Under the pieces are notes generated by a model. The model saw nothing but the letters and a program-made list of their open reading frames with translations, was not told the DNA's origin and searched no databases. Below, in pieces: positions 4,163 through 10,526 of a DNA stretch of 38,235 nucleotides. The stretch lies in the IMG/VR virus record IMGVR_UViG_2563366949_000011; one strand, 5' to 3'. The stretch is from a virus (Duplodnaviria > Heunggongvirae > Uroviricota > Caudoviricetes). Both the position numbers and the translations under genes were made by a program. Position 1 is the first letter of the stretch, and each line of letters begins with the position of its first letter.

Positions 4163-4394
4163 GTTGGTTTTTCTCCACGGATTTACCGACAACCGAAGCC
4201 CTGACTGTTCCAGCAGTTGGGGCTTCACTGTTTTGATTTCTTTGCCGCATCAAGCATCACTTCTGAAAACGTGCGCTTGCCACTGAATACTCTTTCTCTT
4301 CTCAATTTTTCGTTCGTGCCAAATGATTCGCCATGAACAAAATTTGGTCTTAAAATGGTAATCGCAATCTCTTTGACTACTGCATCCAAGCGAA

Positions 4395-4547: not shown

Positions 4548-4661
4548 GTTACCCTCCACGCAAACAACTCTTTTCGAATACAAAAGATAGCAAAGTGAGT
4601 ATATCTAGTCAAAATTTTTTTGCATACACTTTGCTATCAAATTGAATACCAAAGGTGTTAT
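4548..4661. promoter_or_regulatory. Divergent arc-ant / mnt promoter-operator region with a 12-bp inverted repeat pair
   Basis: GATAGCAAAGTG at 4586-4597 and its exact reverse complement CACTTTGCTATC at 4627-4638 lie in the AT-rich spacer between divergent RHH repressor genes. Confidence 0.45.
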
Positions 4662-4910
4662 ATGGCAAAGGGTGTGTCAATTTCTCCAACTACGGTAAGA
4701 ATCCCTGAATCTTTACGCGAGGCTCTTGCTGTCAGAGCATCAAAAAATGGTCGCTCTGTTAACTCCGAGATCGTCATGATTTTGCAAGCCGCGATTGATG
4801 AAGATAGGTCGCCAAAGTCAGTTGAGTCATTTGCTCAGCAAGAAGCTGATAAATTCAAAGAGGCGCTACTTGAGACGCTAAAGACCATGTATGCTAAGGA
4901 TGAAAAATAA
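4662..4910 (+). CDS. mnt: Mnt-like ribbon-helix-helix repressor
   Basis: 82 aa from ATG 4662: MAKGVSISPTTVRIPESLREALAVRASKNGRSVNSEI...KFKEALLETLKTMYAKDEK. The RHH motif and coiled-coil C-terminus resemble P22 Mnt. Divergent from arc. Confidence 0.7.
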   Translation: MAKGVSISPTTVRIPESLREALAVRASKNGRSVNSEIVMILQAAIDEDRSPKSVESFAQQEADKFKEALLETLKTMYAKDEK

Positions 4911-5446
4911 TGCTGCACACAATTCATTTCTTATGCCCTGTTAACACTGCCACTGTTGGGCAACTTCAGAACCACTGTCTCACCGCATTATCTCAAGGCG
5001 CAACTGAATTAAATATCCATATATCAAGTCAGGGAGGGGAAACTGCTGCTGGCTTTACTGCGTATAACTTTCTTAAGTCACTCCCTGTTACCGTTAGAAC
5101 TCACAACATAAGCAATGTTGAATCCATAGCTAATATCGTTTTCCTGGCTGGCTCAGAACGTTTCGCAAACCCATTATCAAGATTCCTGTTACATCCTCTA
5201 TTATGGTGCTTTGCCTCCCCAGCCGCCGACCATGCCAGATTGAGAGAGTACGGGAAATGCCTCGATAACGATCTTGATCGCTTCGTTGAGACGTTCAATA
5301 TCGACATCGGAACCCATATTAGGTGGGCATCCCTGATAGCAGACTCGACCATTTTGGATGCTAACAAGGCTCTTGAGCATGGCATAATTAATTCCATAAA
5401 AACTGCAAGGCTGGCATCCAATCAGGCAAACTGGTGGGTTGTTTGA
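4910..5446 (+). CDS. ClpP-like serine peptidase (Clp/crotonase fold), translationally coupled to mnt
   Basis: 178 aa; start ATG overlaps the mnt stop (TAATG). Motifs IHISSQGGETAAGFTAYNFLKS, a Ser in NVESIANIVFLAGS and a His in FLLHP align by eye with the ClpP pattern (INSPGG...AASMG...MIHQP). Confidence 0.55.
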   Translation: MLHTIHFLCPVNTATVGQLQNHCLTALSQGATELNIHISSQGGETAAGFTAYNFLKSLPVTVRTHNISNVESIANIVFLAGSERFANPLSRFLLHPLLWCFASPAADHARLREYGKCLDNDLDRFVETFNIDIGTHIRWASLIADSTILDANKALEHGIINSIKTARLASNQANWWVV

Positions 5447-5494: not shown

Positions 5495-5944
5495 TTAGTC
5501 AAACATAGTGTTTCTAAAGTCTCTCGCATACCCTGCTAACACTCTCATTCTATTATGATTGTTAGCAGACATGTGAGCTACAGGATGAAAAAGAGCAATC
5601 AATGAATACCTGTTCTCATCAAAAAGATTTTGTGCATAAACGAGAGCGGTATTGGATGTTTTATGCCACTGCAACTTTTGCGGTGTGCTGATATCTGTGC
5701 CATTTTTTATTGGCTCAAATTTATTTTCACCAATTGCTAAATGAAGGTGCATAAGGCCTGCATCTTCAATATCAGGAGGTCGATGATAAGAGGTGTCTCT
5801 GCCAAAATAGCTGGGCAACGTTCCCGTAGACTTGTAGATGATAAAATCATCTACAAGTGTTTGTTTTAAATCAGGAAACTCAACAAAAACCGGGGAGAAA
5901 AAATAGTCAAAACTATCCTGATTATATTCCACGGTTACTTGCAT
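5495..5944 (-). CDS. YafO-like toxin domain protein (putative ribosome-dependent mRNA interferase family)
   Basis: 149 aa, ATG with GAGGT RBS. Segments DDFIIYKSTGTLPSYFGRD, LMHLHLA, ALVYAQNLFDE, LIALFHPVAH and NNHNRM align by eye with E. coli YafO (DFISYKRDGVLPDIFGRD, HIHLA, LVYCQGAFDE, NNQMH), recalled from memory. Confidence 0.55.
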   Translation of the reverse strand: MQVTVEYNQDSFDYFFSPVFVEFPDLKQTLVDDFIIYKSTGTLPSYFGRDTSYHRPPDIEDAGLMHLHLAIGENKFEPIKNGTDISTPQKLQWHKTSNTALVYAQNLFDENRYSLIALFHPVAHMSANNHNRMRVLAGYARDFRNTMFD

Positions 5945-5952
5945 GTTTTACC

Positions 5953-6519
5953 TCAGTGGAAGTTACCAGAGTGAAACACACGAGTCCCGTGCTCAGCAAG
6001 CGCACGCAAACCAGCCATATCTACGGAACTATCAAAAACAACCGGAACACATGAGCGTTGTTTAATAAGACTATTCAGGTTGGTTACGGCAGATCTGGCA
6101 TCAGCAACAACGATATAGATATCTCTTGCGATCTCTTTAAAATCAGCAGAAGCTTCTTTGAATACCGATTTCATTGCCCCTTCAAGTCCTCTCAATTGAT
6201 GCTCTATCAATCGAGACTTTTCTGGTTCAATGATAGACAACACATTGTCTACATTCTCATCGGTAGCGTTTGCAAGAACACGATAAGCGTATTTCAGCAT
6301 TCGAGACAATTCTTTAATCGAAGACACCGCCTCATGAAGCTCATCATTAGCCCGTTCACTGCTGAATGAGGATTGATGGTAAGCGTGCTGAACGTTATCA
6401 GTAACAACCACCTCACAACTGAACGCAGAAGCTTGCTGTAATAGCAAACCTATTGCGACTCCAGCTTTGGCAGCGTTCAAGCTAAACATTTCATCAATCC
6501 CATTAGTCTCATTGCTCAT
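5953..6519 (-). CDS. Hypothetical protein (188 aa), immediately upstream of and co-oriented with the YafO-like gene
   Basis: ATG at 6519 preceded by AAGGAGG. Stop lies 8 nt before the YafO-like start. No family recognised by eye. Region is AT-rich relative to the structural genes. Confidence 0.55.
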   Translation of the reverse strand: MSNETNGIDEMFSLNAAKAGVAIGLLLQQASAFSCEVVVTDNVQHAYHQSSFSSERANDELHEAVSSIKELSRMLKYAYRVLANATDENVDNVLSIIEPEKSRLIEHQLRGLEGAMKSVFKEASADFKEIARDIYIVVADARSAVTNLNSLIKQRSCVPVVFDSSVDMAGLRALAEHGTRVFHSGNFH

Positions 6520-6694
6520 ACAAACCTCCTTCTTATCGGAGATTATCAATAGCTATGCATCCATTGAATACACGCTATGCGCAATAAGTTTACGTCACGT
6601 GATATCATTATGCAACCACCGTTCTATCACCGACTAACTTTACTCCCACTCCTATACATCATCTGGTATCCTGCGCAAAACTAAGGAGGTTGGT

Positions 6695-7045
6695 GTGAAT
6701 GCTCAGTCTGTCATCATGGTTTTCCTTGGGCTGATTGTCGCAAAACTATATCCAGACTGGTGGAAAGGGGCATTAGCTACTGTCGCCATCTATTTGCTTT
6801 TATCCATCGTTAAGCGATCACTCGCTGAGACCGTAAATCAAGCAAAACGTTTCTCATTTAAGAGTTTAATAAACTATGTTACTGGGCTTATTTTTTGCCT
6901 TTCAATTCTGATCGCTTCGGCTTTTTTGCCCGTATCAATAGCTAATTTTTTTGGCGCACCATATGAGGTAGGTTATCTATTCTCTGTTTCCTGTCTTGCC
7001 ATTGCTCTTCTTTACCTGTGGACGAGATCAAAGAATAAAAATTAG
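6695..7045 (+). CDS. Small integral membrane protein (116 aa, about three hydrophobic helices), position equivalent to P22 sieA
   Basis: GTG start with AAGGAGG 5 nt upstream. Hydrophobic segments VIMVFLGLIVA, ALATVAIYLLLSIV and LIFCLSILIASAFLPV. Plus strand, convergent with the ejection-protein operon. Confidence 0.5.
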   Translation: MNAQSVIMVFLGLIVAKLYPDWWKGALATVAIYLLLSIVKRSLAETVNQAKRFSFKSLINYVTGLIFCLSILIASAFLPVSIANFFGAPYEVGYLFSVSCLAIALLYLWTRSKNKN

Positions 7046-7062
7046 CCATCCGTGGCTGCCAG

Positions 7063-9078
7063 TTATTGAGCTTCTTTTTGTGATGCCTGTGCGACTCTGG
7101 TTAGCGATTGTGTGACCGTACTGATCGCTATGTCATATGCTGTGCTACCTTTTGGCGTATTTGCCAGACGTAACAAGGCATTTCGTATAACAGGGCTTTC
7201 GTATGCCTTCGCAGCTCCTCCTACGACACCAGCAGCAGGAACAACAAACGCAGCCGTTTTTAGCATCCCCGCTAATACTGCTGCGTTTATGATGCCACCA
7301 CCAACTAACAATCCATAAAGCTGCTGACCATTTAAGTTTTGAACGTTCGCTTTTGCCGCGTGTCTTGTATCGTTGAGGTATTTAATAACGCCGTCCAGTT
7401 CCTTTCCATGTACGCCTTTAAAGAAAGTTGCTGATTGCTTCCTGTTCCGGTGTAACGCATTAATAAACTTTTCAACACTAATATTTCCAGACGGATCAGT
7501 CGCCTTATCTACAGCATTCTGAACTATGGCTGCTCGTGCGTTTTGCCTACCATTGTCATCCAGAAGCCTGTAAAGCTGAGAACGTTCTGATGGGTTTTGG
7601 CTAAAAACGAGTTTTGTTACATCCTCAGGTGTAGCCTTGCCGCTGGCTATTGCCTTTTGAACGCGCGTTCTTCCCATCATGTCATTGAATCTAGCCCATG
7701 AGCGATCAACCCTAGACATATTGGCAGCTTCTTCTGAGCCTAGTTTTTGGGATACTGCTTTTTTCATATCCGCTGTATATGCCTTGTAGACAATATCGCT
7801 GGCTTTCTGGAGCGTGTCTTTATCAACAGTCTCGTTTGAATTCATGAACCGCTTTCGAAGGTCAGTTCTGTTTTCTCTCGCCAGACGCAGGTCATTGGGT
7901 CCGCTGGTGATATCGTCTTTAAATTGCTGCAAGACTTTTACCGCGGCTCTATCCTGAGATTTGCCCGGGCGGCTTAACACGGCAATCTGATTGTCGATAG
8001 CTTTTACCGTGTTTGAGAGATCGACAGGGGTATCCCCCATAGCGTCAATTATGCGGTTATATCGCTTTCCTGCTGCCTCAATGAATTTTTGTTGCCCTTT
8101 AGTCGCAGATTCATAAAGCTGTTTATCAGAAATGCCACCCAGACCATCGCTAAATGTTCTGACTAAATTTTCTCGTGCTTGTTGTTGATTCAGCCGATTC
8201 TTACCGGTTCCAAAAAAAGGAACTCTTTCGCCTAATGTCTGAGCCTGACTCTGCATAAAGGTTTTATCTTTCAGCGTGTCACTGGTCATTAACGGCAGGT
8301 TTCTTTCCGACGCAAAATCGACAGCAGCCTTTGCTTCCGGTGACATCTCACCGCGAACAGCCCTGGAAACCGCACTAACTGTATTTTCCAGCCCCTTGCC
8401 AACACCACCAATGCCAGCAGAAATTACCGTTTGTGCAGGATCAATATCTTCTCCGCCAGCAAGGCTGGTGCCACCCTGTAGTGCTAAATCTGTAGCAGCT
8501 GATTTCCCTATGGCACCAAGCACCGTTCCAGCCCTGCCCGCTGGTGTGAACGCTAACGCATTAGCAAGAAACGAAGTCAGGTCTTGCGGTGATAAACCTG
8601 GCTTGTTCAGGGCATAATCACCGGATGGCAGGGAAACGATAGTGTTACCCTTCTCATCCTGCCTTAATTTCGCCCCCATACTCTGAAGAATCTTTTCCTG
8701 AGACGCGTCGGAGCCGAAAAGTTGAGACCATCCAGCCTTCAGGGCATCCATGCTTAGTGAGTTCAACTCAGGGGCAGCCCCAACATTTTGCAGTCTCTCC
8801 ATTTCTGGTGTCATTCGGCTTTCACCGGTAACGGCATCGCGCATTGCAGCACCTAAAACAGCCCCTTGCTCAGCAGAGCGATCTAGTCCTTCCTTCTGCT
8901 GAGTGGCAAGCTGTGCATATCCTGATGCAAGTGAGTTGTCTGCTGGCGATTGCTGAACACCTTGTTGTGTTGGCGCTGACTGACCAGCAAAATACTCATC
9001 AATGGCGGACCCAATATCTTCCGTGCTCGTACCATCAGGAAAGGTAAATGTCTTACCATTTGCAGTTACTTTCATCAT
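7063..9078 (-). CDS. Ejection (injection) protein, P22 gp16-like
   Basis: 671 aa ORF at the position and orientation of P22 gene 16, last gene of the head/ejection operon. Confidence 0.75.
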
Positions 9079-10526
9079 TCCACCGTAAATTGAATGCCTG
9101 ATTTTGACGTGTAGCTACCTCCTGCTGATTGCTGAGTAGCTGGCTGTTGCCTTGATGATTTCTTCCCGCCATTACCAACATTAACGTTATATTGCTGGTT
9201 GTAATTGTCGGTATATTGCTGAATGTCGCGCATTGATTGTTGCAGCGCTTCAGGACTTGAGAAATCAGGCTTTGGCATACCCTGAAAATACCTATTGGCC
9301 TCTGCTTCGGTGTTGATGCCAGATGCCCCCATATCTCGGGCTGCTGCAATCCCCTGATTTTGCATTTTGCCCATGATTCGCTGTGCAGCGTTGTATAGCC
9401 TCCTCTCCTCAACACCAGATGCCCTGCTACGAATATCTGCACCAAGAGCAAAAGAACCTGAAGAACCTGTAATACCTGTCATGAAGCCAAGATCGTCAAT
9501 TGATGCGCCAGAAATTGCATCAAGATCTTTCTTCATTTCGTAATTCTGTGCATTAGCTGCCGATGTAGCCGGAGCAGCAATAGAACTGGCGGGGACGCGA
9601 ATCATATTGCCCTCGTTGTCTATTCCTTCGTAGAACGCATTAGCACCAGCGCCGTGAAGCTTCCTACCAACCGTTACCGTTCTGCCATCTGCCAGTTGCA
9701 CAACATTCTCCCCGCCAGCATCAGGACGACCTCGAACACGAAGATATGTCTTTTGTTGCTCTGGAGACAGGCTGTTGAAATATTGATATTCTTTAACAGA
9801 TGCAGGAACAGCACCTCCAGCAGTGCGCAGGGAGTTTTCACGGCTAACAGCAATGCTTTGCGCCTTTAAACCTTCCCCAGCTTTATTGCTGCGAATCGTC
9901 TCTGCCAACTTGCCACGCTCAATATCCCGACCTTCCATTTGATCTTTGATATCGAAATACTTCTCATGACCGAGAGAAAATAGTGCCAGATTACCTGCGA
10001 AGTGCTGGAAGCCCTGCGGGTCATTAACCTGCATTTCCGCAATAGTTTCTGGAGGGATACCTAAACGACGCATATCCTTTTCGTTATCCATCATGAACCT
10101 GCCAAATGCACCCGGACCAAGCGACGAAGCGACCTGAGCCTTAAGCGCCAGATTGCCAAAATCATCCCGCTGGGCGTCATCGACATACCCCATGCCTTTA
10201 CGGACTTCCTCAAACTCTTCGGGGAATGCTGTAATAAGATTACGCATCTGCTCCCTGTCGCCGGACGCATAAGCATCCGCATAACCTTTCTGGAATGCCG
10301 CTTTACGCTCCTGCTTTTGCTGCTGCTTATAAATATCAGCAACTCCAGCCAGACCACGAAGACCTGTCAGAGCAACGTTATTTGCACCTGATCGAGCCAG
10401 TTCATTGTTTTCGCGGATCAGACCAAGCGTTGCGTTAATGTCGCTTGCCTTTGGCGCATTCTCATTTTGCGTACCGATGCCAGCCAGAAACCCACCAGAA
10501 TTAATACCCTGTTGCCACGTAGCCAT
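9075..10526 (-). CDS. Ejection protein, P22 gp20-like
   Basis: 483 aa ORF, start overlaps the upstream stop; position and size as P22 gene 20. Confidence 0.75.

Follow-up and report, generated by a model that had tools for sequence, protein, structure and literature searches.

A small predicted membrane protein, unrelated to SieA, in a cassette at the sieA position of a P22-like prophage: a candidate superinfection exclusion factor

Small inner-membrane phage proteins such as HK97 gp15 and T4 Imm reportedly block the entry of phage DNA, and HK97 gp15 is a prophage-expressed moron within the virion-gene cluster. In P22, a single copy of sieA with 85 bp of upstream and 22 bp of downstream sequence lowers the plating of P22 by at least 10^7-fold, and mutations that escape SieA fall in the C-terminal regions of gp16 and gp20 (Leavitt et al., PMC10883804). 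A cytoplasmic motif near the C terminus, FxRYPxEAxxFNK, defines three SieA types (PMC10883804). The region between genes 16 and 9 in which sieA lies has been named the 'ant moron' and described as one of rapid flux and non-identical functions; for the prophage of APEC O1 six genes were listed there, and the region was drawn in 2008 with genes of unknown function (Villafane et al., PMC2629481). A prophage moron that stands at the sieA position and encodes a small inner-membrane protein is, in this sense, known already.

The stretch of DNA analysed here (38,235 nucleotides, the window in what follows) consists of an entire P22-like prophage, inserted at argW with yfdC/intS on one side and dsdC on the other. 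The prophages of the E. coli K1 strains S88, APEC O1 and ATCC 11775 match it at 99.8% identity, and it is a relative of phage CUS-3, with which 70% of its first 25 kb is shared at 97.7% identity; the differences from CUS-3 are in gene 16 and in the gene 16-to-9 region. ORF116 lies in that interval and is convergent with gene 16, that is, at the position of sieA. The preliminary description had placed it there, and the leader and hairpin described below bear this out. The features concerned are as follows.

6664–6694, plus strand: conserved 'sieA-slot' leader TGGTATCCTGCGCAAAACTAAGGAGGTTGGT, with an extended -10-like TGgTATCCT at 6664–6672 and a Shine–Dalgarno sequence at 6683–6689
6695–7045, plus strand: ORF116, GTG start, 116 aa, TAG stop; candidate four-helix inner-membrane protein
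7044–7057, no strand assigned: hairpin AGCCAtccgTGGCT (AGCCA-tccg-TGGCT), the 3' boundary of the cassette, between the converging stops
7063–9078, minus strand: gene 16 homologue, 671-aa ejection protein, matching phrog_770 (DNA transfer protein) at 4.9e-171 and annotated as P22-gp16 family
9075–10526, minus strand: gene 20 homologue, 483-aa ejection protein, given for context

The holin, lysozyme and Rz genes of the prophage form a complete lysis cassette elsewhere. A YafO toxin module adjoins ORF116 in the window; an operon of the two was considered and rejected, the module being on the opposite strand and missing from other ORF116 loci.

The 116-aa plus-strand frame that had been reported, with its GTG start and strong AAGGAGG ribosome-binding site, is exact at 6695–7045. 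The Shine–Dalgarno sequence ends 5 nt 5' of the GTG, and it, the start and the frame are all kept in Yersinia enterocolitica, Edwardsiella tarda and a third E. coli lineage. In strain S88, RefSeq/PGAP places the start at an ATG (window position 6716), giving 109 aa; this codon is ATA in the third E. coli lineage, for which reason we take GTG 6695 to be the true start. Homologues at 37–40% identity have an MNxQ N-terminus and are of equal length. Pairwise dN/dS for ORF116 is 0.13–0.22 at dS of about 1–1.3 and 0.33–0.6 between close E. coli lineages, against 0–0.23 for the adjoining gene 16; it was below 1 in all comparisons, with no signal of positive selection. The GC content is 39.9%, compared with 47.5% in gene 16. 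ORF116 is a real gene under purifying selection. That it is instead non-functional, a chance frame or a decaying remnant, might be suggested by the RefSeq start calls, which differ among genomes (109, 116 and 129–130 aa), and by several truncated or frameshifted copies in the database (P0013–P0019). This has a negligible probability, however, and is effectively refuted by the pattern of conservation: frame, start, Shine–Dalgarno sequence and length persist across genera down to 37% identity, dN/dS is low at the larger distances, and the gene is intact in 227 complete E. coli genomes.

By hydropathy, the protein has four hydrophobic segments, at residues 1–20, 25–40, 58–83 and 92–110, and AlphaFold2 models from two alignments likewise have four helices in their secondary structure, at low confidence (pLDDT 56 and 64). 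The topology check proposed earlier thus returned hydrophobic helices, and a membrane protein is still predicted, with four segments in place of the three or so first counted. Lysine and arginine are unevenly distributed, with five in loop 40–57 and three in the C-tail (the C terminus is LYLWTRSKNKN), two in the turn between helices 1 and 2 and none in that between helices 3 and 4. This amounts to eight on the predicted cytoplasmic side versus two on the periplasmic side, a strong positive-inside bias. By the positive-inside rule, this distribution predicts that both termini are inside, that the central loop is cytoplasmic and that little of the protein protrudes from the membrane. A motif, L-x-L-I-V-A-K-L-Y-P-D-W-W, is conserved where the first helix meets the periplasmic turn. 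Residues invariant down to 37% identity are L11, V15 and K17-L18-Y19-P20 at the end of helix 1 and in the first periplasmic turn, and Y61, G64, L65, F67 and P79 in helix 3; F53, L108 and R111 are also invariant. If the protein has a contact surface, the KLYPDWW turn and helix 3 are the likeliest places for it.

The comparison of ORF116 with the SieA family, which had been suggested as a check, found neither sequence nor profile similarity. BLASTP against P22 SieA gave E 0.29, and hhalign of the ORF116 family alignment gave probabilities of 0.28% against the SieA type A alignment and 0.08% against the type B SieA of HS1. The phrog_7745 model, which as a positive control found P22 SieA (9e-109), HS1 SieA (6.5e-21) and a third, divergent SieA, the L047 protein (4e-4), had no match to ORF116. 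In the precomputed Pfam assignments, PF26849 is listed for relatives of SieA and not for those of ORF116. The FxRYPxEAxxFNK motif is missing from ORF116; its RYPxEA part, present in P22, HS1 and L047, occurs in none of the six frames of the window or of any ORF116 locus, so that ORF116 and the SieA motif co-occur at no locus examined. ORF116 is not a SieA homologue: BLASTP, hhalign against types A and B, the motif and the PHROG model together rule this out and agree with its earlier characterisation as short and distinct. The proteins differ also in size (164–212 aa for SieA, 116 aa for ORF116), ORF116 being by prediction almost all membrane-embedded and lacking the soluble loop of ~50 aa. What the two have in common is the setting. 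P22 sieA, like ORF116, adjoins gene 16 downstream in the ant moron and is convergent with it; the genes share a 33-nt leader, the Shine–Dalgarno sequence, the GTG and the terminal hairpin; and SieA is by prediction a polytopic inner-membrane protein of three to four helices, as ORF116 may be with its four. HK97 gp15 and T4 Imm resemble ORF116 in being small phage-encoded membrane proteins, but they belong to other phage types and another genomic setting, and ORF116 has no PHROG or profile match with families of that kind.

The leader of P22 sieA, caTGGTATCCTGCACAAAACTAAGGAGGTTGGTGTG, and that of ORF116 in the window, tcTGGTATCCTGCGCAAAACTAAGGAGGTTGGTGTG, show 1 mismatch in 33 nt, Shine–Dalgarno sequence and GTG included, so that ORF116 has the proximal part of the upstream region used with P22 sieA; the leader of the type B sieA of HS1 is a diverged version of this sequence. 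A T precedes GGTATCCT in 53/53 distinct upstream contexts among the IMG/VR matches listed, making TGgTATCCT universal there, and this sequence fits an extended -10. Beyond about 9 nt further upstream of the leader, about eight unrelated sequence contexts are found among the same listed matches. On the plus strand upstream of ORF116, no consensus sigma-70 promoter scored in the window or in a satellite locus. sieA has a promoter region of its own upstream (PsieA), and we infer that the leader at 6664–6694 may have promoter activity.

The hairpin at 7044–7057 overlaps the TAG of ORF116 and fills the 17-nt gap to the stop of gene 16. P22 sieA ends at a hairpin just before gene 16, GCCGTCCTTGGC, and ORF116 likewise ends at GCCATCCGTGGC; a GCC[AG]TCCNTGGC hairpin follows 15/15 ORF116 and 12/12 SieA cassettes examined among the IMG/VR matches listed. 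Its fold, of 5 bp and -7.2 kcal/mol (z = -0.19), is a weak one and no more stable than shuffled sequences. A terminator-like score is obtained on the minus strand only, where there is a T-run, and on this account it looks like a terminator of the late operon and not a bidirectional one. Of the earlier proposal that ORF116 ends at a hairpin shared with the ejection operon, the geometry therefore stands, with the hairpin probably serving the late operon. Rfam has no RNA family at the ORF116 locus; its sole match in the window is sar, at 4163–4229.

A direct view of exchange at this position comes from E. coli islands in which the 3' end of gene 16 is 97–99% identical to that of the window. In these, the 5' flank is near-identical over at least 200 nt, Shine–Dalgarno sequence and GTG included, and leads into one of three genes: ORF116, a 204-aa protein of the SieA family or a 132-aa secreted protein. 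The 204-aa protein has a RYPGEA motif, aligns to the SieA profile with 94.5% probability in hhalign, matches phrog_7745 and is 34% identical to HS1 SieA; the 132-aa protein has a signal peptide and belongs to phrog_2651. In a MAFFT alignment, the 3' flank directly past the stop codon is common to the ORF116 and SieA-like cassettes, and the secreted-protein cassette has ~45 extra nt before it. ORF116 is thus replaced precisely by a SieA-family gene between identical flanks, presumably through recombination within them. The numbers among 5,426 complete E. coli genomes are as follows.

ORF116: 229 genomes (~4%)
SieA-like cassette: 103 genomes
Secreted-protein cassette: 126 genomes
N7/APEC-1-type 3' end of gene 16: 418 genomes

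We have defined a 'sieA-slot' cassette operationally as an ORF running from the GTG of the leader GGTATCCTGnnCAAAACTAAGGAGGTTGGTGTG to the GCC[AG]TCCNTGGC hairpin before gene 16; ORF116 has both ends. A scan of IMG/VR for the leader found at least 120 contigs that carry it, and the ORFs starting at its GTG belong to at least 12 unrelated families, mostly envelope-targeted. Among the matches listed, these are HkcB-like proteins (29 loci), a secreted 129-aa protein (24), ORF116 (15), SieA type A (12), proteins of 62 aa (10) and 75 aa (9) with two helices each, a 109-aa protein with a membrane anchor and coiled coil (8), a 140-aa soluble protein (5), a 149-aa anchored protein (5), N7 ORF14-like proteins (4) and two with signal peptides, of 99 aa (4) and 68 aa (3). 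HkcB (of HK620, CUS-3 and epsilon34) and N7 ORF14 share with ORF116 the slot, the leader, small size and membrane anchoring; they differ in having a single N-terminal anchor and a coiled-coil or soluble domain, and are unrelated to it in sequence. Of the 12 families among these listed matches, ten exceed the hydropathy threshold, and the N-terminus of one more resembles a signal peptide by eye, a composition that fits a slot specialised for prophage factors acting on the envelope. The survey, with its fixed leader, varied upstream contexts and at least 12 families, shows ORF116 to be one among the alleles of a hypervariable cassette whose limits are the conserved leader and hairpin.

The other constant element of the locus is gene 16. 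The gp16 of the window is 30% identical to that of P22 and 71% to that of phage N7, and in BLASTP it had no match to gp16 of CUS-3 or HK620. Beside ORF116, gene 16 is always of this 'N7/APEC-1' sequence type. In the aligned ORF116 loci, gp16 is 59–100% identical per 100-residue bin over its C-terminal ~570 residues, with divergent or truncated N-termini, and in one locus (L036) the overall identity is 67%; the C-terminal half of gene 20 differs between loci that bear ORF116. We have read the gene content of 21 loci from called or annotated genes and of two more from ORF listings. They come from Yersinia, Edwardsiella and several E. coli lineages and include a pair of IMG/VR contigs whose homologues are 40% identical. 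In every locus, ORF116 is convergent with gene 16 and 17–24 nt from it, and the other flank varies. A motif scan found the hairpin and the C-terminal motif of gp16 3' of ORF116 in 15 further IMG/VR loci (among the matches listed). Genes 20 and 16, with ORF116 alongside, have also moved into satellite-like islands in which every other virion gene is missing. The product of gene 16 is a candidate for the target or the partner of ORF116.

The family of ORF116 is very small: 19 clusters, formed at 90% identity, represent it among 5.8 billion proteins. Every one is from Enterobacterales and bears the annotation 'hypothetical'. A profile HMM run against 1.84 billion representatives found seven clusters, none outside the family. 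Nothing significant was found for it in Pfam, PHROGs or NCBIfam. In PADLOC-DB v2, with E up to 0.1 allowed, neither ORF116 nor either of two distant homologues matched a defence-system family; a tblastn search of 50,697 phage records and a PDB sequence search gave no match, and a contig scan of one genome per species found no relative. The best Foldseek match of the model in BFVD, at E 0.39, is meaningless. A holin or lysis role was considered and rejected, the Pfam match to Phage_holin_3_6 scoring 13.7 bits (E 0.065) against a cut-off of 28.4 and the lysis genes lying elsewhere. Lambda RexB, GtrA and SMR proteins resemble ORF116 in size and in four predicted helices, but it has no Pfam, NCBIfam or PADLOC match and no RexA-, GtrB- or GtrC-like partner gene; a GtrA- or SMR-type transporter was considered and rejected. 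Literature searches on the RefSeq protein accession of ORF116, and on ejection proteins in satellites, brought up no specific account.

We propose, with a confidence that stands midway between doubt and acceptance, that ORF116 is a prophage-expressed inner-membrane superinfection exclusion factor directed against P22-like phages. It has the expression context of two experimentally validated exclusion genes, sieA of P22 and of HS1; a SieA-family gene can stand in its place between identical flanks, and the SieA motif never accompanies it in the loci examined; it keeps its convergent position 17–24 nt from gene 16 in all loci read; it has four hydrophobic helices with a strong positive-inside bias; and the families in the slot are mostly of envelope type (10 of 12 by hydropathy among the listed matches). 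The low GC content, and a dN/dS above that of gene 16, are as expected of a moron in host–phage conflict. We infer that ORF116 would be expressed in the lysogen, being transcribed toward gene 16 from the 6664–6694 leader and translated from GTG 6695, and that in the inner membrane it would form two helical hairpins whose cytoplasmic parts are the N terminus, the basic loop 40–57 and the basic C-tail. Its exposed parts would be two short periplasmic turns, one of them KLYPDWW, the most conserved motif. There it may hinder incoming P22-like phages in building or using their gp20/gp16 DNA-delivery conduit and so keep their DNA out, the effect of SieA produced by an unrelated protein. Against this, ORF116 has no link of sequence, motif or fold to known exclusion proteins, its dN/dS gives no sign of positive selection, and no consensus promoter scored upstream of it. 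The structural model is of low confidence (pLDDT 56–64), and membership of the slot is no proof of exclusion, as at least ten other unrelated families share it. The satellite-like islands that carry ORF116 also raise a difficulty, since a blanket block on the entry of a helper could be counter-productive for them.

ORF116 could instead be an inner-membrane moron with another role in the envelope or in lysogenic conversion, and not a blocker of P22-like DNA delivery; examples would be an altered host transporter, stress tolerance, or an effect on the receptor or entry route of unrelated phages. We consider this unlikely. Its chance is nevertheless appreciable, given that the families behind the leader, at least 12 in number, some secreted and one soluble, cannot all act as SieA does, that ORF116 has no homology to any exclusion protein and that the functions in the ant moron were described as non-identical in a region of rapid flux (PMC2629481). 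Such a role leaves unexplained, however, the strict linkage of ORF116 to gene 16, which extends to the small satellite-like islands, and it has to be set against the precise exchange with a SieA-family gene and against the fact that SieA types A and B, the only members of the slot of known function, are both exclusion proteins.

Two further readings are less probable. A small four-helix membrane protein might be an abortive-infection or toxin effector, RexB- or holin-like, that on a phage or stress signal permeabilises the inner membrane and kills or arrests the cell. The weak Phage_holin_3_6 match, sub-threshold holin matches in Foldseek (E ~1) and the adjoining YafO module would be in keeping with this, but every one of these similarities is below significance, PADLOC has no match, no partner gene is conserved at a left flank that differs between loci, the YafO module, encoded on the opposite strand, is missing from other ORF116 loci, and the prophage has its own complete lysis cassette; we regard the effector as improbable. 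Improbable too, in our view, is that ORF116 is an accessory to the gene 16 protein of its own phage or confers immunity to it; such a factor would either shield the membrane of the producer from ejection proteins or, through matching to the gene 16 type, spare own or satellite particles and block others. The occurrence of ORF116 beside one gene 16 sequence type only, and its movement with genes 20 and 16 into islands devoid of other virion genes, are what such a factor would lead one to expect. Yet the same gene 16 type also occurs with a SieA-like, secreted or N7-ORF14-type cassette, from which it follows that gene 16 needs no ORF116; the late operon and ORF116 are on opposite strands, and the linkage could simply reflect the spacing of ~18 nt. 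Moreover, P22 SieA excludes P22 itself (PMC10883804).

Superinfection exclusion by ORF116 can also be placed in a wider scheme, which we put forward as speculative and doubtful. P22-like phages, and satellite-like islands bearing the ejection-protein genes of such phages, may have a hypervariable 'entry-control' locus, at which at least 12 unrelated envelope proteins are swapped by recombination at the fixed leader and hairpin. ORF116 would then represent a class of DNA-injection blocker unrelated to SieA, perhaps matched to N7/APEC-1 gp16 so that own particles are treated differently from competitors.

The literature that we searched contains no account of a family unrelated to SieA that uses the sieA leader and hairpin, none of ORF116 as allelic with SieA-family genes, and none of the leader as the mark of a locus at which a dozen unrelated envelope proteins occur as cassettes. 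Comparison with SieA would be natural for a membrane protein that is unrelated, much smaller and interchangeable with it behind one leader: should the two both act on the gp16/gp20 conduit to block it, the features common to them would define the vulnerable step. The conserved leader is, in addition, a simple sequence handle for a dozen uncharacterised envelope proteins of P22-like prophages. Slot cassettes are present in ~8% of complete E. coli genomes for the N7/APEC-1 gene 16 type alone, and the carriers of ORF116 include K1 neonatal-meningitis and avian-pathogenic lineages (S88, APEC O1) that are the targets of K1-specific phages.

The following features of the window bear on the surroundings of ORF116, the predicted four-helix inner-membrane protein, and on its leader.

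4163-4229, plus strand: sar RNA (Rfam RF00262, 83.9 bits)
4620-5446, plus strand: gene for an Arc/Mnt-like ribbon-helix-helix protein and gene for a ClpP-like serine protease
5495-6549, minus strand: gene pair for a YafO-family toxin (Pfam 3.4e-22) and a phrog_8416 protein
6665-6697: 33-nt leader GGTATCCTGnnCAAAACTAAGGAGGTTGGTGTG, upstream of ORF116 and including its GTG

With sar RNA, the antisense regulator of ant, and the genes for Arc and Ant all present, the P22-type immunity I region shows as intact. The ribbon-helix-helix gene overlaps by one base that of the ClpP-like protease (178 aa, Pfam CLP_protease 2.2e-11, phrog_94). A lone protease of the head-maturation type was unexpected within this region. 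The adjoining pair, in which the YafO-family gene lies downstream of that for the 188/198-aa phrog_8416 protein, is missing in loci L005-L008, where the ClpP-like gene is directly 5' of ORF116; this suggests that the pair was inserted into the ant moron, the variable region between genes 16 and 9. For the 198-aa protein, a role as a non-canonical antitoxin is possible.

Although the prophage as a whole resembles CUS-3, its gp16 (gene at 7063-9078, minus strand) has no detectable similarity to gp16 of CUS-3 or HK620, and its gp20 (gene at 9075-10526, minus strand) matches that of CUS-3 only over the N-terminal 214 residues, with 53% identity. Across loci the C-terminal halves of gp20 are unlike one another despite near-identical gp16, which places a mosaic joint within gene 20.

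Ejection genes of P22 type also occur, as gp14-gp7-gp20-gp16 or as gp20-gp16 only, in ~20-kb islands found at four or more chromosomal sites in two genera (L041 in E. coli 042, NC_017626.1 4198135-4217750; L040; L016-L020; L004 in Edwardsiella; L045-L047). These islands carry an integrase, an AlpA-type HTH protein, PerC and a TOPRIM/DUF927 primase, have no coat, portal, terminase or tailspike genes, and contain a sieA-slot cassette after the ejection genes. They look like satellites that supply their own ejection proteins, of which we found no description in the literature searched.

Two cassettes stand in tandem in Yersinia (L003, 7627-8330) and in IMG/VR loci, L067 and L160 among them, in the order gene for a secreted 99-108-aa protein, GCCATCCNTGGC hairpin, Shine-Dalgarno sequence and second cassette, which in Yersinia is ORF116. 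Since it separates the stacked cassettes, the hairpin is also an inter-cassette boundary.

RefSeq starts for the ORF116 gene conflict (window 6695/6716; L001 9317-9646; L039 5593-5982), being an internal ATG in S88 (109 aa) and an upstream ATG in other genomes (129-130 aa); read from the conserved GTG with its Shine-Dalgarno sequence, the protein has 116 aa in all of them. In at least 120 viral contigs (IMG/VR loci L048-L163), the GGTATCCTGnnCAAAACTAAGGAGGTTGGTGTG leader stands in front of ORFs that belong to at least 12 unrelated families. The hydropathy threshold was passed by 10 of the 12 families, and an eleventh is signal-peptide-like by eye. The leader is an easy handle with which to fetch, from P22-like phages, genes that are candidates for exclusion or conversion.
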